From assembly GCA_964482715.1 (NCBI GenBank), contig CAYZYX010000001.1, positions 5,398 through 69,397 of the forward strand: a DNA stretch of 64,000 bases. Direction: 5' to 3'. The stretch comes from an uncultured Clostridia bacterium (GTDB taxonomy: Bacteria > Aerophobota > Aerophobia > Aerophobales > B3-G15). Numbering within the stretch: the stretch's first letter is position 1; every line of letters begins with the position of its first letter. Both the position numbers and the translations under genes were made by a program. This document shows, one piece after another, positions 57,506-64,000 of the stretch. The notes under the pieces were generated by a model. The model did not search any database and was not told the origin of the DNA. It saw only the letters and a program-made list of their open reading frames with translations.

Positions 57506-59212
57506 ATGGCAAAAGTAACAAGGATGAGTCTCAGAGAAGTTTTGCTTCGAGAGAGATTTATCACTGAGGAAGATTTAAAGAAGGCGGAGCGGTATCAAAA
57601 GCAAAATGGCGTAAGTCTGGCTGATGCCCTCATAAAGATGGGTGTTATCAATGAAGAGCAGCTTGTTATTGGACTTGCCAAACAACTTGGGATCCCACAT
57701 GTAAAACTCAGCAATTACAAACTCGATCCTGAAGTTATGGAAACTATCCCTGAGGAAATTATCCGTAAAGAAAAAATAATTCCTCTGGCAAAATCGGGAA
57801 ATATTTTAACCATCGCTACAGCCGACCCTTTAAATGTTTTGCTTATTGACGCTCTAAGAGCCAGAACAGGTTACAATATTCAGACAATAGTTGCTACCCC
57901 CACTGAGATTGAGAAAGTGATCGCCGATTATTTTTCTACCAAGGCTGAAAAAAGTATCAGCAGTCTTATTGAACAATCGGGTGATAATCTGACAGTTCTG
58001 GAAGGGGAAGAAACAGTAAATCTTGACGCACTCCTGCAGGAAGCAGAGCAAGCGCCAATTATAAAAATGGTCAATATGCTTCTTTCTCGAGGCATAAGGG
58101 AGAGGGCAAGTGATATTCATTTAGAGCCTTTTGAAGATAAAGTACGAGTCCGATATAGAATTGATGGTATTTTATATCCTGCAATGAACCTGCCCAAGAG
58201 AGTCCAAAATGCCATAGTTTCCCGTATAAAGATTCTTTCCGAGATGGACATTGCCGAACGTCGTCTTCCTCAGGATGGAAGATTCAGAGTGAGGGCTTAC
58301 AATCGAGATATTGATTTTAGAGTTTCCACAATTCCTACACGATTTGGAGAAAAAGTTGTTTTAAGACTTCTGGATAAAGCCCAACTTATGGGTTTAACCA
58401 TAGATAAACTGGGATTAGAAGAAGACGTTTTGAAAAAGTATCAGAGGGCTATAAAGCAGCCCTACGGGATGATCATTCTTACCGGTCCCACAAGCTGTGG
58501 TAAATCCACATCATTACATGCAGCTATAAGGGCCCTTAATACACCTGATAAAAATATATTAACTATTGAAGATCCAGTAGAATATGAACAGGAAGGGATA
58601 AATCAGGTTCAGGTGAATGAGGAAATCGGCTTGACCTTCTCTCGTGCTTTAAGAGCCTTCCTCCGCCAGGACCCGGACATAATAATGCTGGGTGAGATGA
58701 GGGATCTGGAAACCGCTGATATTGGAGTTAAGGCAGCCCTTACCGGTCATCTGGTTCTTACCACTTTGCACACCAATGATGCTCCCGGTGCAATAACGAG
58801 GCTTTTAAACATGGGAGTTGAGCCTTTCCTTGTTGCCGGCTCTCTCATTTTTGTTGGAGCCCAGCGTCTCATGCGCAGGATTTGCAAGGAATGTGCTGAG
58901 GCCTATACACCCCCTCCAGAGCTTTTAGAGCAACTTGAGGTGGACAAAGACCCTAAGTCTCTCACCTTCTACCGGGCAGTAGGTTGTGAGGCCTGTAACA
59001 ATACAGGTTATCGAGGGAGAATGGCTGTAATGGAGGCTTTAGAGGTGGATGAGGTAATAAGGGACTTGATAATAAAGAGAGCCTCCGATGTGGAGATAAG
59101 AAGAGTGGCTATAGAAAGAGGAATGGTCCCCTTAAGGAAGAATGCCCTGGCCAAGATTTTAAAAGGAGAGAGCACAGTTGAAGAATTGGGAAGAATAACA
59201 GGGACCATTTAA
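57506..59212 (+). CDS. pilB: Type IV pilus assembly ATPase PilB (GspE family)
   Basis: N-terminal T2SSE_N domain, Walker A GPTSCGKST, Asp/His boxes, tetra-Cys zinc motif CKEC...CEAC. Confidence 0.9.
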   Translation: MAKVTRMSLREVLLRERFITEEDLKKAERYQKQNGVSLADALIKMGVINEEQLVIGLAKQLGIPHVKLSNYKLDPEVMETIPEEIIRKEKIIPLAKSGNILTIATADPLNVLLIDALRARTGYNIQTIVATPTEIEKVIADYFSTKAEKSISSLIEQSGDNLTVLEGEETVNLDALLQEAEQAPIIKMVNMLLSRGIRERASDIHLEPFEDKVRVRYRIDGILYPAMNLPKRVQNAIVSRIKILSEMDIAERRLPQDGRFRVRAYNRDIDFRVSTIPTRFGEKVVLRLLDKAQLMGLTIDKLGLEEDVLKKYQRAIKQPYGMIILTGPTSCGKSTSLHAAIRALNTPDKNILTIEDPVEYEQEGINQVQVNEEIGLTFSRALRAFLRQDPDIIMLGEMRDLETADIGVKAALTGHLVLTTLHTNDAPGAITRLLNMGVEPFLVAGSLIFVGAQRLMRRICKECAEAYTPPPELLEQLEVDKDPKSLTFYRAVGCEACNNTGYRGRMAVMEALEVDEVIRDLIIKRASDVEIRRVAIERGMVPLRKNALAKILKGESTVEELGRITGTI

Positions 59213-59228: not shown

Positions 59229-60458
59229 ATGCCCACTTACAGTTACATAGCTCTGGACCCATCGGGTAAAAAGATCAAAGGGGAAGTGGAAGCGGAGGAT
59301 GAAAGAGATGTTGTTTCTCAACTTCGTCCTCGCCGGTTTACGATTATTTCCGTAAAAAGGAAATCAAAAGTTAGTGAGCTGGGTGGAAAGGAGCTTTCGC
59401 AGCTTTCCATTTTTTCTCCTCGAATAAAGGGGAGAGATATTATTATTGCTTTCCGACAAATGGCCACTCTTATCAATGCTGGACTTCCCATTGTTCAGTG
59501 TCTTGACATACTTATCCATCAGACGCCAAATCCTACGTTAAAAAAGGTTTTCATTCAAATTAAAGCTGATGTGGAAGCAGGAGTTTCTCTATCGGAAGCT
59601 CTGGCTAAAACCAAAAAGTTTCCTCCTCTCACCTATAACCTTATAAAAGCTGGTGAGACAGGGGGGGTGCTTGATGATCTCTTGCTCCGGCTGGCAAGTT
59701 ATCTTGAAGAGGCAGAAAGTATCAAGGAGAGAGTAAAGTCAGCCTTGAGGTATCCTCTTTTTGTTTTGTTTATGGCTGGAGGGCTGACCCTGGCATTACT
59801 TTTTTATGTTTTACCCAGAATGGAAGAGCTATTCCGGGAGGCATTTAAAGCGGATCTTCCTGCTTTTACTGCATTCATTCTTAATTTTTCCCGTTTATTG
59901 AGAGAAAAATTTTACATTGTTCCTGTAATTCTTGGCATTGTCCTGCTTGTTTACTTTATAATGAAAAAAACAGAAAAAGGTGCCTATCTGATAGATAGCT
60001 TAAAATTAAAAATACCTGTTCTGGGAAAACTTTTTCACCGGATTGCCCTATCAAGATTTACCCGCACCCTGGCTACTTTGACTGATAGTGGTGTTCCTAT
60101 ACTTGATGCTCTGGAGCTTACCGGGAAGGCGTCCGGAAATAAGGTCATTGAAAAGGCCACTGAAGAGGCGAGACAGGCATTGAGAGAAGGGGAAACCATT
60201 GCGGCACCCTTAAGGAAATATCCCATTTTTCCACCCCTTACCATAAGCATGATATCTGTTGGAGAAAGGACAGGGGCGCTTGATGATATGCTCAACAAGA
60301 TAGCTGATCTTTATGAGGATGAAGTCAAGAGGATGGTTGACTCTCTGACCAGTTTACTGGAACCTCTACTTATTGCATTCATGGGAGCTTCGGTGGGGAT
60401 AGTAGTAGTGGCAATGTACCTTCCCTATTTTACCATGTTTCAGCATATAGGTGGATAG
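59229..60458 (+). CDS. pilC: Type IV pilus inner-membrane platform protein PilC (GspF family)
   Basis: Two GspF repeats, three TM segments, conserved ...LLEPLLI... C-terminus. Confidence 0.85.
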   Translation: MPTYSYIALDPSGKKIKGEVEAEDERDVVSQLRPRRFTIISVKRKSKVSELGGKELSQLSIFSPRIKGRDIIIAFRQMATLINAGLPIVQCLDILIHQTPNPTLKKVFIQIKADVEAGVSLSEALAKTKKFPPLTYNLIKAGETGGVLDDLLLRLASYLEEAESIKERVKSALRYPLFVLFMAGGLTLALLFYVLPRMEELFREAFKADLPAFTAFILNFSRLLREKFYIVPVILGIVLLVYFIMKKTEKGAYLIDSLKLKIPVLGKLFHRIALSRFTRTLATLTDSGVPILDALELTGKASGNKVIEKATEEARQALREGETIAAPLRKYPIFPPLTISMISVGERTGALDDMLNKIADLYEDEVKRMVDSLTSLLEPLLIAFMGASVGIVVVAMYLPYFTMFQHIGG

Positions 60459-60468
60459 GAATCTATAG

Positions 60469-62817
60469 GTGGAAAAGAGAACCATAGAGTCCGGGTATTC
60501 TCCGGTCCTGTCTTTTATCCTTCGTTTTGGTCTTTTTGAGCTTCTCTTTCTTACCCCCCTTATCTTTTATGGTTGGGCAACCACTTTTTCCATGACCAAA
60601 GAAACCTTTGCAGAAATTTCATGTCTGGTACTTTTCTGCGGGATTATGATTAAGATAACAAAAAGGGAAATTGATTTGTCACTTGGCCTTTTTAGTTTGC
60701 CGGTAGCTATATTTGGCCTCTGGCTTTTGGCTTCTGTCAACTGGAGCCAGTCTTTATATCTTTCTCTTCAGAGACTGGGAGTGTGGGGGTCTTTTTTTCT
60801 TGTTTATTTTCTTTCCCGATGGGTGGCTGACGATGAAAAATGGGTTTTTTTACTTTTAACGGGAGCCCTTCTATCGGGCTTTCTGGCAGCGGCATACAGT
60901 ATCTGTCAGTTTTACGGGGTTGAACTTCCAATCTGGAGGCAAATTACTGGAAGGATGCGCATTTTTTCTACCTTTGGAAATCCAAATTATCTTGCCAGCT
61001 ATCTGGCAGGTGCAATTCCACTTTTAATATATTTTTTTCTTTATCACAAAAGATGGAGGATTTTTTACCTTGTGGCAATTGGCACTTTATATACAGGTCT
61101 TCTCATTACCTACACTCGAGGAGCCTGGGTAGCACTATTTCTCTCGGTGATACTGACCATTTTTTTGATTTTAATTTTTCAGGGGAAAAGTTTCTTTTCT
61201 CTTCATAAAATACCTCTTATTTTACTTTTAATCCTTGTTTTTTCTTTAACTTTTGTGTTTTCTATTCCCAATCCTCTAAATTTAAAGAAAAAAAGTGTTA
61301 TAGAGAGGGGAGCTTCGGTGCTTGAATTCACCTCATCGGCAACACAGCGTCTTTTGATCTGGCAGGTGGCAGTTCAGCTTATTAAAGAAAGACCTCTTTT
61401 TGGTTGGGGGATAGGCACATTTGGTCTTCATTATCCTGAGGCCCAGGGAGAATTTCTTTCCAGAGCTGGAAATAAAAATTATATTCCCCAGGCTAACAGG
61501 TCAATTCATGCTCATAATGATTATCTGGAGATCTGGGTGGAGACCGGGATAGTTGGAATTTTGCTCCTTTTGTGGGTGATAGGAAATTTTTATCGAAAAA
61601 TTTTTCTTTGTTTAAAGAAAACCACATCAGCCTCATTCTCAGCTTTTTTGATATTTATCACTGCCAGTATTAGCTGTTTTTTAATCCATGCTACAGTCAG
61701 CTTTCCCTTTCACATTGTGCAAAATGGGATGTTTTTCTGGCTTCTCATGGCCATATCGGGAAAAAAGATTGAAGAAAACTTGGGTTTGGATCAACACGAT
61801 CTTTTGAGATGGTGCAAGGGAAAGGAAGGCAAACCGGTTAGTTATCGGTTTAAAAAAGGATGGTTTTTACTTGGACTGGTTATAGTTTTTTCTTTTTATC
61901 TCGGTTTGTGGCGAATAAGAATATTTACATCTGATCTTCATGTAAAGCAGGCCGAGCTTTTAATGGATGCCGGGTTTTACCTGCCAGCTAAAGAGCAGCT
62001 TCTGGAGGCGGTAAAAATAAATCCCTATAATGCTCAAGCTTATGCTTATCTGACCAGAGCTTATATTTATCTTGGTAATTACCGTGAATTAATTGATATC
62101 TTTCCCGGGGCTTTAAAAGGCTGGAACACCCCCAATATTTATAATAATAAAGCCTTTGCTCTACTGAAGCTGGGGAAAATTAAGGAGGCAAGGGAAATTT
62201 TAGAGAGAGGTATATATCTTTATCCCAACTTTGCTCCTGGTTACATCAACCTGGGTTATATTTCTTTGCTTGAGGCTGAGGAGAAATTGAAAAAAAAGAA
62301 TTTTCCTGGAGCATTGGAAAATCTGGATAGGTCTTTACTGTCTTATGCTCAGGCAAAGATCTGGCAAAAAAATTTTGCTATTCCAGAGAGGCTATCATAC
62401 GACTTTTCAATGTGGAAAAGAGAAAAAGGATATATAGAGAAAAACGTCCAGATAAAGGAAATTTCACCTACCTTCCCTTTTTATGTTAAAGATAAAAGCT
62501 TTGTTTTTTTGCTTCCCCCGGTTGCCTGGCCGGAGGAATCTTTTCTGGTTAATGTGCTTGTTTTTGATAAAAAATCTGAAAGAAATCACATCCTCGAGCT
62601 AAAATTAGAGATTTCAAAAAAAGAAGGGGAGATTAAGTATCAAAGAAAAATTAACCTTCCGCAATTTTCTGAGAACCCTGTTATTGTTAGATTTATTTTT
62701 GAAAAGGGGCTTCCTGAGGGAAGCTACTATGCCCGGGTTAAATTACTTGAAAATGGAAAGGAGGTTGAGGGTAAGCAGTTAAATTTCAGCATAGCTCAAT
62801 TCCCGCTCCCAGAGTGA
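60469..62817 (+). CDS. O-antigen ligase family (Wzy_C) membrane protein with C-terminal TPR domain; candidate pilin O-oligosaccharyltransferase (PglL/TfpO-like)
   Basis: About 12 TM segments. Wzy_C signature motifs YTRGAWVAL and HAHNDYLEIWVETG (the H-N-x-Y-L-E periplasmic loop). C-terminal ~300 aa with TPR-like repeats. Sits between pilC and the pilin gene. Confidence 0.75.
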   Translation: MEKRTIESGYSPVLSFILRFGLFELLFLTPLIFYGWATTFSMTKETFAEISCLVLFCGIMIKITKREIDLSLGLFSLPVAIFGLWLLASVNWSQSLYLSLQRLGVWGSFFLVYFLSRWVADDEKWVFLLLTGALLSGFLAAAYSICQFYGVELPIWRQITGRMRIFSTFGNPNYLASYLAGAIPLLIYFFLYHKRWRIFYLVAIGTLYTGLLITYTRGAWVALFLSVILTIFLILIFQGKSFFSLHKIPLILLLILVFSLTFVFSIPNPLNLKKKSVIERGASVLEFTSSATQRLLIWQVAVQLIKERPLFGWGIGTFGLHYPEAQGEFLSRAGNKNYIPQANRSIHAHNDYLEIWVETGIVGILLLLWVIGNFYRKIFLCLKKTTSASFSAFLIFITASISCFLIHATVSFPFHIVQNGMFFWLLMAISGKKIEENLGLDQHDLLRWCKGKEGKPVSYRFKKGWFLLGLVIVFSFYLGLWRIRIFTSDLHVKQAELLMDAGFYLPAKEQLLEAVKINPYNAQAYAYLTRAYIYLGNYRELIDIFPGALKGWNTPNIYNNKAFALLKLGKIKEAREILERGIYLYPNFAPGYINLGYISLLEAEEKLKKKNFPGALENLDRSLLSYAQAKIWQKNFAIPERLSYDFSMWKREKGYIEKNVQIKEISPTFPFYVKDKSFVFLLPPVAWPEESFLVNVLVFDKKSERNHILELKLEISKKEGEIKYQRKINLPQFSENPVIVRFIFEKGLPEGSYYARVKLLENGKEVEGKQLNFSIAQFPLPE

Positions 62818-62835
62818 GTTTCCCAGAATAGGAGG

Positions 62836-62863
62836 TTGACAGTATTTTTTTATTTTTTACAAT
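62836..62863 (+). promoter_or_regulatory. Sigma70-like promoter TTGACA-16-TACAAT driving the riboswitch-pilin transcript
   Basis: TTGACA 62836-62841, 16 nt AT-rich spacer, TACAAT 62858-62863. Confidence 0.5.
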
Positions 62864-62884
62864 ATAATGGTTTTACAATCCGGT

Positions 62885-62980
62885 AAAGTGGAGCCGAAAG
62901 GGCACACTATCCGAAAGGATAGGTCGCAAAGGCACAGGCCCCTCAGGGGTAGCTGGCCTGCCGAAGCTCTTTGGCATAGA
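62885..62980 (+). promoter_or_regulatory. Putative c-di-GMP-I (GEMM) riboswitch aptamer in the pilin 5' leader
   Basis: AGGGCACACUAUCCGAAAGGAUAGGUCGCAAAGGCACAGGCC aligns with the Vibrio Vc2 aptamer GGGCAAACCAUUCGAAAGAGUGGGACGCAAAGCCUCCGGCC as recalled from memory. That gives a perfect 6-bp P2 helix capped by a GAAA tetraloop, the conserved ACGCAAAG junction, and a long P3 hairpin (GGCA-GGCC...GGCC-TGCC). Confidence 0.6.
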
Positions 62981-62981
62981 A

Positions 62982-63012
62982 GACCCATTCTTTCGGATGG
63001 GTCTTTTTATTT
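62982..63012 (+). terminator. Intrinsic terminator forming the riboswitch expression platform
   Basis: GACCCAT-TCTTTCGG-ATGGGTC hairpin followed by TTTTTATTT. Confidence 0.65.
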
Positions 63013-63081
63013 GGATATATAAAACTTAAAGACAGAAAAAATATCGGCCGATAAAAATAAAAGAAGAGGAGGTGAAAAAAT

Positions 63082-63651
63082 ATGGAGAGGATGATGAGAA
63101 AAGTTTGGTCCAGGAAGAAGGGATTTACCCTGATCGAACTTTTGATCGTGGTCGCCATCATAGGCATATTGGCGGGTATTGCCATTCCCAACTTCCTGGG
63201 CGCAAGGACGAAGGCAAGGGTATCAAGGGCATTTTCGGACATGGAAGCAATAGCTACAGCAGAGGAGATGTACATGATGGATGAAGATCATTATGCTGAC
63301 CAGATTACCACTCTGATTAATGATGACTATCTTAAGAACATTCCCAATTGTCCATTTGGTGATGGTGATTATTCTTTATTTACAAGTCCAGACACAAGTC
63401 CCACCATGTTTGTGATTTTGTGTGATGGACCTCATTCACCAACAGGAGGAGCGGCATCTAATGCAAGTGTTGAATGGGATCCCCGAATACGTGGTGCAAT
63501 TGGTGGATGGAATGGAGCAACCGATGAGGCATACTACGGGATCAGTTTAACTGGTACTACTCAAGCTGACGGTTCAGAAACCGACTGGTTCACCCCTACT
63601 GAGACTGAGGGTGCAGCAGACGATGGTATTTTAGGTTATGGAGGCGGATAA
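63082..63651 (+). CDS. pilA: Type IVa pilin (prepilin with N-terminal cleavage/methylation domain)
   Basis: Leader MERMMRKVWSRKKG then FTLIELLIVVAIIGILAGIAIPNF (Gly-1, Phe+1, Glu+5). GAGGAGG RBS. C-terminal third rich in Ser/Thr/Gly/Asp. Confidence 0.85.
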   Translation: MERMMRKVWSRKKGFTLIELLIVVAIIGILAGIAIPNFLGARTKARVSRAFSDMEAIATAEEMYMMDEDHYADQITTLINDDYLKNIPNCPFGDGDYSLFTSPDTSPTMFVILCDGPHSPTGGAASNASVEWDPRIRGAIGGWNGATDEAYYGISLTGTTQADGSETDWFTPTETEGAADDGILGYGGG

Positions 63652-63711
63652 ATCTTTTATGACCACATGGGCATATTTCCGTGTGTCCACATCTCTCCTG
63701 CTTCACTTAAA

Positions 63712-63749
63712 GGTAGGGAGGTTTTTCTCCCTACCTTTTTATTTTTCAA
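63712..63749 (+). terminator. Intrinsic terminator downstream of the pilin gene
   Basis: GGTAGGGAG-GTTTTT-CTCCCTACC hairpin followed by TTTTTATTTTT. Confidence 0.7.
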
Positions 63750-63880
63750 TAAGCCTCCTTTCCACAGCCTCACAAAAATTCTGCTTGACAAGATAGGTGG
63801 ATTAAGATAATTTTATAATTAAGAAAGGATATAAAGAATCTTCATTTTAGATTAAAAATGAGGAAAAGGAGGTGAAAAGA

Positions 63881-64000
63881 ATGATAAAAAAGATAGGACT
63901 CTTACTCTTAGCAGTAATTTTGGGTGTTGCCCTTTTTTCTGGACTGGCAATACCCCAGCAGAAGGAAAAGCCGGTAGAGATATACTTTTTCTGTGGAGGT
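63881..64000 (+). CDS. Hypothetical secreted protein (3' end cut by window edge)
   Basis: AAAGGAGGTG RBS, ATG at 63881, signal-peptide-like MIKKIGLLLLAVILGVALFSGLA; open to the window end. Confidence 0.35.
   Translation, partial: MIKKIGLLLLAVILGVALFSGLAIPQQKEKPVEIYFFCGG

Follow-up and report, generated by a model that had tools for sequence, protein, structure and literature searches.

A riboswitch for cyclic di-GMP (c-di-GMP) appears to precede a type IV pilin gene in an uncultured bacterium of an Aerophobetes-like candidate phylum. The element lies on the plus strand of a 64,000-nucleotide (nt) stretch of contig CAYZYX010000001.1 (positions 5,398 to 69,397; assembly GCA_964482715.1), which is referred to here in its entirety as the window. 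The tRNA-guanine transglycosylase encoded in the window shares 61-74% identity with proteins named Candidatus Aerophobetes and 60% or less with the next named matches (Firmicutes and one Nitrospirota), which makes an Aerophobetes-like host probable. Taken together, the evidence makes it fairly probable that this is a class I switch with a canonical ligand pocket, located in the leader of a monocistronic major-pilin mRNA, and that it acts on an intrinsic terminator as an OFF switch, the last part of this reading being based on structure modelling. A sequence-only reading of the same stretch had proposed a promoter, a class I aptamer, a terminator and a pilin gene in this order, and all four elements were found where it had placed them.

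The identity of the aptamer was established by covariance models. When the whole window was searched on both strands with Rfam (cmscan, gathering thresholds), the sole match was at 62892-62966 on the plus strand and belonged to clan CL00126. The top model, RF03167 ("c-di-GMP-I-GGC"), exceeded its threshold of 59 with 62.3 bits (E = 2.5e-12). A second, lower-scoring family of the clan also exceeded its own threshold at this position and was masked by the clan filter. A search with the trimmed stretch 62897-62962 again returned RF03167 as the best model. The class I identity suggested from the letters is thus borne out at the gathering level of the c-di-GMP-I clan, with RF03167 and not RF01051 as the top model. 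No c-di-GMP-II (class II) model reached its gathering threshold anywhere in the 64 kb. The same scan returned no other RNA family, tRNA included. A match to the serC leader (13.8 bits, E = 0.23) was rejected as a chance resemblance of the P2 hairpin.

The fold of the element agrees with this assignment. P1, P2 and P3 form with the conserved junction bases in place, and the core GGGCACAC-UAUCC-GAAA-GGAUAG-GUCGCAAAG-GCACAGGCC is located at 62900-62940. The P2 helix with its GAAA tetraloop is present as the sequence-only reading had described it. That reading erred in two details: the junction is UCGCAAAG and not ACGCAAAG, and P3, which it called long, is short in comparison with the canonical family. 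The element resembles the Vc2 aptamer of Vibrio cholerae (RF01051) in its three-helix junction, its GAAA-capped P2, its equivalents of G20, A47 and C92, its C44-G83 pair and the spacings between these bases. Like Vc2, it also occupies the 5' untranslated region of a motility or surface gene. It differs from the RF01051 consensus in its short P3, which is without the 11-nt GAAA tetraloop receptor, and in a junction that reads UCGC instead of ACGC.

In Vc2, the ligand is contacted by G20, A47 and C92, and P2 is linked to P3 by a universally conserved C-G pair (PMC4744006; PMC5888326). Of the ligand's guanines, one pairs with the Hoogsteen face of G20 (PMC4744006) and the second is in a Watson-Crick pair with C92 (PMC5888326), and the role of C44 is in the interhelical pair (PMC4744006). 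The spacing between the equivalents of G20 and A47 in the window is 27 nt, which is the spacing given for Vc2 and Vc1 (PMC4744006). Both bases of the interhelical pair are present (C62925 and G62952) and are predicted to pair. Their distances to the neighboring contacts, 3 nt from C44 to A47 and 9 nt from G83 to C92, both fit the residue numbering of Vc2, in which we take the pair to be C44 and G83. Judged by its sequence, the element is a genuine class I c-di-GMP riboswitch, an unexceptional representative of a familiar family of RNAs, and it is very probably a functional one.

Relatives of the element were sought on the contigs of the closest pilin homologues, all of them metagenomic. Six leader lineages were distinguished: that of the window (with the near-identical leaders of loci L161 and L163), L165 (with L166), L167, L171, L172 and L175. 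With the Rfam models, the pilin gene was found to be preceded by the aptamer in L161, L163, L165, L166, L167, L171 and L172. The first five of these scored 61.7-67.1 bits with RF03167, while with RF01051 (threshold 35) L171 reached 56.9 bits and L172 reached 57.4. The L175 aptamer was added, at 92.8 bits, by a covariance model (R1) built from the aptamer-bearing leader sequences. The window is itself one of the sources of R1, and its own R1 score (102.7 bits at 62884-62974) has to be read with this in mind. R1 had no match elsewhere in the window and none in 160 unrelated pilin loci. Rfam and R1 searches found the aptamer absent upstream of the pilin relatives L001, L162, L169 and L170. When genome and metagenome collections were scanned with the pilin, no aptamer was found among the 160 loci listed; these scans were dominated by the generic prepilin N-terminus, and L001 was the only full-length relative among the listed loci.

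The structure is supported by the pattern of substitutions. In an alignment of seven sequences (A2), the proposed structure left 93.1% of cells paired, compared with 32-46% when the partners were slid by one to three columns. P2 and P3 were 100% paired across the alignment. P1 was paired in 77.8% of cells, with one row, L166, misaligned. Seven pairs were changed on both sides (two in P2 and five in P3), a count equalled by 4 of 500 shuffles. The columns of G62901, C62925, A62928, G62952 and C62961 were invariant, and the pocket bases are constant across lineages whose pilins share only 49-57% identity. The loop of P2 varies: it is GAAA at 62913-62916 in the window, GUGA in L167 and GAUAA in L172, and the receptor columns of RF01051 are deleted in the window's lineage, the CUAA and uAu columns being gaps when L171 and L172 are aligned to this model. 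Docking of a GNRA loop of P2 into a receptor in P3 is typical of c-di-GMP-I aptamers and not universal among them. A leader peptide was considered and rejected. A 51-amino acid (aa) open reading frame (ORF) at 62867-63022 overlaps the element and is open only in the window, the relatives having stops in all three frames, which places the conservation at the level of the RNA. A 52-aa gene called in the public record at L171 1761-1919 also overlaps the riboswitch and is not conserved in frame. Both small ORFs are probably spurious gene calls.

Two further observations were made on the aptamer. The first concerns the P2 internal loop, where positions 62905 and 62924 (A2 columns 22 and 42) covary in a non-Watson-Crick manner. 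The window, L163, L171 and L175 have GGCA[C]AC opposite GG[U]CGC, and L165, L166, L167 and L172 have GGCA[A]AC opposite GG[G]CGC, the Rfam consensus being A opposite A. This pattern suggests a constrained non-canonical pair. The second concerns L165 and L166 (~2800-2830), which do not differ in the pilin gene or, from the aptamer on, in the leader, and diverge completely upstream, starting inside the 5' strand of P1. The upstream genes are the Wzy_C gene in one and other pilin-like genes in the other, and L166 retains P1 with a different 5' strand. From these sequences there appears to be a recombination breakpoint at the edge of the aptamer.

The aptamer is followed by an intrinsic terminator at 62978-63012. 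As the sequence-only reading had anticipated, a GC-rich hairpin with a U tract lies there, upstream of the prepilin gene, and it is predicted to terminate transcription. Folding gave the hairpin an energy of about -17.5 kcal/mol. A simple terminator scanner missed it, for which a probable reason is that part of the U tract can be drawn into the stem. An equivalent self-contained terminator follows P1 by 10-20 nt in six of the six leader lineages. The terminator of the window shares no nucleotides with P1 or P3. On this modelling, it is likely that the riboswitch acts through the 62978-63012 terminator. Control at the level of translation was considered and rejected: the ribosome-binding site (RBS) lies ~55 nt past the terminator, and inspection of the aptamer gave no anti-RBS sequence. 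The leader of L172 (~1700-2000) has 315 nt from the aptamer to the pilin ATG and a promoter-like TTGACA...TATGTAAT past the terminator, through which part of pilin transcription could bypass the riboswitch there.

A possible route from the aptamer to the terminator was found in the complementarity between the terminator and P2. Transcripts of the window cut at 62996-63000 adopt the helix of P2 with the terminator as their minimum-free-energy structure, and so do L172 transcripts that end inside the terminator. In the window, this anti-terminator is better by 5.9 kcal/mol than the best structure that keeps P2. The P2 region was paired as a separate molecule with the 5' arm and loop of the terminator, and the energy of this duplex was compared with 500 shuffles per lineage. 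The duplex energies were -20.0 kcal/mol in the window, -16.7 in L165, -14.8 in L171, -20.6 in L172 and -15.5 in L175, with 0 of 500 shuffles as good in each of these five, and -11.8 kcal/mol in L167. The complementarity has been preserved through sequence change. In L172, GAUAA has taken the place of GAAA in the P2 loop and UUAUU that of UUUC in the terminator, and an 11-nt exact repeat (AUAAGAAUAGG) is common to the 3' half of P2 and the 3' arm of the terminator. In L175, the lower terminator stem has been wholly replaced and the P2-complementary top (CAUUCUUUCGG) retained. In L165, L171 and L175, the lowest part of the terminator 5' arm has a further potential partner in the 3' strand of P1, a possible second contact that would follow the same logic as P2 invasion. 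As a universal anti-terminator the P1 3' strand was rejected: the pairing is good in L165 (GCUCUUUC/GAAAGAGC), L171 and L175 and amounts to only 4 base pairs (bp) in the window.

The following mechanism is proposed. In the absence of ligand, the nascent 5' arm and loop of the terminator would invade P2, pairing with its tetraloop, its 3' strand and the adjacent GGUC to form a long anti-terminator, and RNA polymerase would read through into the pilin gene. With c-di-GMP bound, P1, P2 and P3 would be locked together and P2 would be closed to invasion. The terminator would then fold, transcription would end at ~63008-63012 and the pilin mRNA would be truncated, such that high c-di-GMP would lead to less pilin synthesis. 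Provided that the switch acts through the terminator, the folding results indicate that it is probably an OFF switch, a direction on which the sequence-only reading had not committed itself. That the anti-terminator is specifically the P2-invasion helix is put forward more tentatively. The same caution applies to the arrangement as a whole, an unusual platform in which the terminator would be a near-complement of P2 (stem, tetraloop and GGUC) instead of the P1 3' strand, and in which c-di-GMP would shield P2 and thereby turn pilin expression off. If so, a P2-mimicking expression platform would be slightly unusual.

Several points weigh against this reading. In L167, 56 of 500 shuffles equalled the P2-terminator complementarity, which there does not exceed chance, and the lineages in which it lies beyond all shuffles are five of the six. 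Since the six lineages share ancestry, the resemblance between P2 and the terminator cannot be counted as six independent observations. Folds of truncated transcripts of L165 and L171 give the terminator 5' arm other partners, among them the P1-3'/GAAAGAGC hairpin in the minimum-free-energy structure of L165, so that the exact form of the anti-terminator is tentative. The direction of control depends on folding thermodynamics to which neither tertiary contacts nor the ligand contribute, and P2 is a stable local hairpin that forms first, so that its invasion would need strand displacement. There are also ON switches among class I riboswitches, Bc2 of Bacillus thuringiensis being one, and the sign of regulation in one species cannot be carried over to another (PMC6366702). 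As to the canonical family, the RF01051 scores on record are those of L171 and L172 only, that of the window being masked by the clan filter. Lastly, no GGDEF or EAL motif was found in the ORFs of the window by a search limited to regular expressions. With this, and with a c-di-GMP-binding motif in PilB that is not conserved, the window offers no independent support for c-di-GMP metabolism.

Could the same c-di-GMP-I riboswitch be an ON switch, in which c-di-GMP favors read-through and pili are made at high c-di-GMP? The second messenger commonly promotes type IV pili, the pilA1 gene of Clostridioides difficile is an ON precedent, and Bc2 shows that class I aptamers can work in this direction. 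The full-length minimum-free-energy structures, with no ligand modelled, always include the terminator. The PilB-type ATPase encoded upstream has an MshEN-type domain, and such domains activate pilus ATPases upon binding c-di-GMP; against this, the PilB in question has lost the conserved Arg and Gly with which the c-di-GMP-binding motif begins. The leader itself also argues the other way. The terminator is self-contained and has no nucleotides in common with P1 or P3, so the ligand-bound fold cannot sequester either of its arms, and this independence speaks against an ON design in which terminator and aptamer overlap. All of the alternative partners found for the terminator 5' arm (the 3' half of P2, the P1 3' strand and J2/3) are segments that the ligand would lock, which follows the logic of an OFF switch. 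An ON switch is thus considered unlikely.

It has also been considered whether the aptamer is a decaying relic, with the hairpin serving as a constitutive attenuator or as the end of transcripts reading through from pilB, pilC and the Wzy_C gene. There is precedent for loss of function, as 5 of 16 predicted c-di-GMP riboswitches of C. difficile are non-functional (PMC6366702), and the element is missing from some pilin relatives (L001, L162, L169 and L170). Decay is hard to reconcile with ligand-contacting bases that stay invariant while the pilins diverge, with helices upheld by compensatory changes and with an aptamer-terminator pairing kept in six lineages, and a strong promoter stands between the upstream genes and the aptamer. 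This explanation is very unlikely.

The RF03167 match raises the question of whether the pocket is altered. If the element were a c-di-GMP-I-GGC variant, it could have a changed pocket and perhaps a different ligand, and RF03167 is indeed the best-scoring Rfam model both for the window and for five orthologous loci. The two consensus cores differ at a single position (GACGCAAAg in RF01051 and GACGCGAAg in RF03167), and a further difference lies in distal P3, with a CUAAg...cuAuG segment, presumably the 11-nt GAAA tetraloop receptor, in RF01051 and a short hairpin in RF03167. The name GGC reportedly refers to positions 20, 47 and 92 (Weinberg et al. 2017), and the printed consensus lines agree. 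At the diagnostic position of the junction UCGCAAAG, the window has A (A62928), as in RF01051, and every orthologous copy has CGCAAAG and therefore A at the A47 position. The window element is like the GGC variant in its short receptor-less P3 and near-identical core, and unlike it in the A that it and its orthologues carry in place of the consensus G. What is shared specifically with RF03167 is confined to the P3, an architectural trait, and RF03167 outscores RF01051 because this helix is short and without the receptor. For two orthologues, RF01051 is the best-scoring model. By its sequence, the aptamer is one with a canonical pocket despite its top match, and an altered GGC-type pocket is highly improbable.

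A side result concerns the family model itself. The gathering score of RF03167 was passed by the A47-keeping, short-P3 aptamers of the window (62892-62966), L161, L163, L165, L166 and L167, so that a match to RF03167 alone is no sign of an altered pocket. For annotation, the A47 position of RF03167 matches needs to be checked before an altered ligand is inferred. Sensing of 3',3'-cGAMP (c-AMP-GMP, GEMM-Ib type) instead of c-di-GMP can likewise be given hardly any weight, as variants for this ligand reportedly have A at position 20 (Kellenberger 2015; Nelson 2015) and the window has G62901 there, invariant over all lineages, with C92 kept too. Rare GEMM-I variants for c-AMP-GMP do hide among c-di-GMP-I matches (PMC7266159).

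On the plus strand, the leader runs from the end of a 782-aa ORF at 62817 through the promoter, the G+C-rich segment 62890-62970, the hairpin with its U tract and an A-rich spacer to the RBS and the pilin ATG at 63082. The fold of the whole leader has z = -4.5 relative to dinucleotide shuffles. The TTGACA-16-TACAAT promoter named by the sequence-only reading is present, with 11 of 12 consensus matches. It was the top promoter-like site of 62400-64000 in a promoter scan, despite which the number of such sites in this region was not above that in shuffles. A TTGACA...TACAAT/TAATAAT layout also occurs in the orthologous leaders L161, L163, L165 and L175. We infer that the pilin transcript starts at ~62870. 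The motif TTTTACAAT occurs in two copies (62855-62863 and 62871-62879) and a perfect TATAAT at 62863-68 overlaps the -10 region, which leaves the transcription start ambiguous by a few nucleotides. In the RBS region, GGAGGTGA is conserved in all orthologous leaders. The positions of these features are collected in Table 1.

Table 1. Features of the pilin leader and its neighborhood in the window. Positions count from the first nucleotide of the 64,000-nt stretch.
Feature	Position	Strand	Description
PilB-type ATPase	57506-59212		Pfam T2SSE and MshEN domains
PilC	59229-60458		Pfam T2SSF
Wzy_C gene	60469-62817		O-antigen-ligase-like membrane protein with TPR repeats (Pfam); 782 aa
Sigma-70-type promoter	62836-62863	+	-35 TTGACA 62836-62841; spacer 16 nt; -10 TACAAT 62858-62863
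Complete c-di-GMP-I aptamer with P1	62890-62970	+	81 nt; Rfam match 62892-62966
P1	62890-62896 with 62962-62970	+	A62964 and A62965 bulged; pairing read from sequence
J1/2 junction AAAGG	62897-62901	+	From alignment to Rfam models; G62901 equivalent to Vc2 G20
P2	62902-62927	+	Closing pairs G62902-C62927 and C62903-G62926; 3x3 internal loop
P2, upper part	62907-62912 with 62917-62922	+	6-bp stem; GAAA tetraloop 62913-62916
C62925	62925	+	Equivalent to Vc2 C44; interhelical pair partner, in P2
A62928	62928	+	Equivalent to Vc2 A47; G at this position in the RF03167 GGC consensus
P3	62930-62959	+	62930-62942 with 62946-62959; bulges A62934 and A62951/G62952; short, without 11-nt GAAA receptor
G62952	62952	+	Equivalent to Vc2 G83, in P3
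C62961	62961	+	Equivalent to Vc2 C92; 9 nt past the G83 equivalent
Intrinsic terminator	62978-63012	+	Core stem 62982-62990 with 62995-63003, 9 bp, 5 of them G-C; from folding
Terminator, full stem	62978-62990 with 62995-63007	+	13 bp in the minimum-free-energy fold
Terminator, loop and tail	62991-62994; 63004-63012	+	Loop UUUC; tail U5-A-U3; U tract starts within the 3' arm of the stem
Proposed anti-terminator, downstream strand	62982-63000	+	62987-63000 with P2 hairpin 62907-62920, 14 bp
Proposed anti-terminator, second segment	62982-62985 with 62922-62925	+	Pairs with GGUC; 4 bp
RBS GAGGAGGUG	63066-63074	+	7 nt upstream of ATG; read from sequence
Type IV prepilin gene	63082-63651	+	189 aa; N-terminal methylation motif; Pfam N_methyl, E = 1.6e-10
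Pilin-unit terminator	63709-63738	+	13-bp stem followed by a T-rich tail

The pilin gene had 6396 homologues, and those with an annotation are prepilins or T2SS-G-like proteins. The -35 element follows the end of the Wzy_C gene by 19 nt. With this gene ending upstream of the promoter and a second terminator at 63709-63738, the riboswitch transcript comprises the pilin gene only. The suggestion of the sequence-only reading that pilin glycosylation might be coupled to c-di-GMP finds no support, as the glycosyltransferase-like Wzy_C gene lies outside this transcript. The order pilC, Wzy_C gene, aptamer and pilin is repeated in L165, L167 and L171. A Wzy_C/TPR protein of ~780 aa is conserved between pilC and pilin (60469-62817 in the window, 351-2711 in L165, 1-1753 in L171 and 1-1096 in L167), and from its sequence it is a candidate pilin O-glycosyltransferase. 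In PilB, the opening Arg and Gly of the conserved MshEN motif are replaced (SLREVLL... and SLADALI...), and control of the pilus by c-di-GMP at the protein level is thus uncertain. A pilin paralogue without the riboswitch is followed in L169 (1455-2948) and L170 (952-2445) by a protein with PAS, GAF and HD domains, possibly a c-di-GMP phosphodiesterase of the HD-GYP type or a different kind of signalling protein.

The c-di-GMP riboswitches of other bacteria provide a frame for these results. The class I riboswitches of V. cholerae, neither of which controls termination (PMC6366702), differ in this respect from the window element, which is followed by an intrinsic terminator. Closer parallels are found in C. 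difficile, where Cd1 (Cdi-1-3) and other class I riboswitches also combine an aptamer with an intrinsic terminator ahead of genes for a motility organelle (PMC6366702). [quoted passage not shown] The element described here differs from Cd1 in that it precedes a pilin gene instead of the flgB operon and in that its OFF direction is a prediction. With Cdi-2-4 of C. difficile pilA1, it shares a place in the leader of a major type IV pilin gene and control via transcription termination (PMC6366702). Cdi-2-4 is, in contrast, a class II riboswitch of unrelated fold and an ON switch, where the window element is of class I and predicted to be OFF. By analogy, the element would be functionally closest to the class I OFF switches of the Cd1 type, and by the gene that it controls it would parallel Cdi-2-4 of pilA1.

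To conclude, the element adds one more case, from an uncultured lineage, to a riboswitch class that is well known, and modelling makes an OFF mechanism plausible for it. It places c-di-GMP signalling, and control of type IV pili at the level of RNA, in an uncultured Aerophobetes-like candidate phylum, where the supply of pilin is predicted to respond directly to c-di-GMP. The aptamer and its terminator form a compact pair of ~145 nt that is open to testing. If the proposed mechanism is true, the major pilin of Candidatus Aerophobetes would be under class I OFF control, opposite in sign to the control of C. difficile pilA1 and exerted by a riboswitch of a different class. This control would be carried out by a receptor-less aptamer subtype with a short P3, which Rfam now files under the GGC variant.

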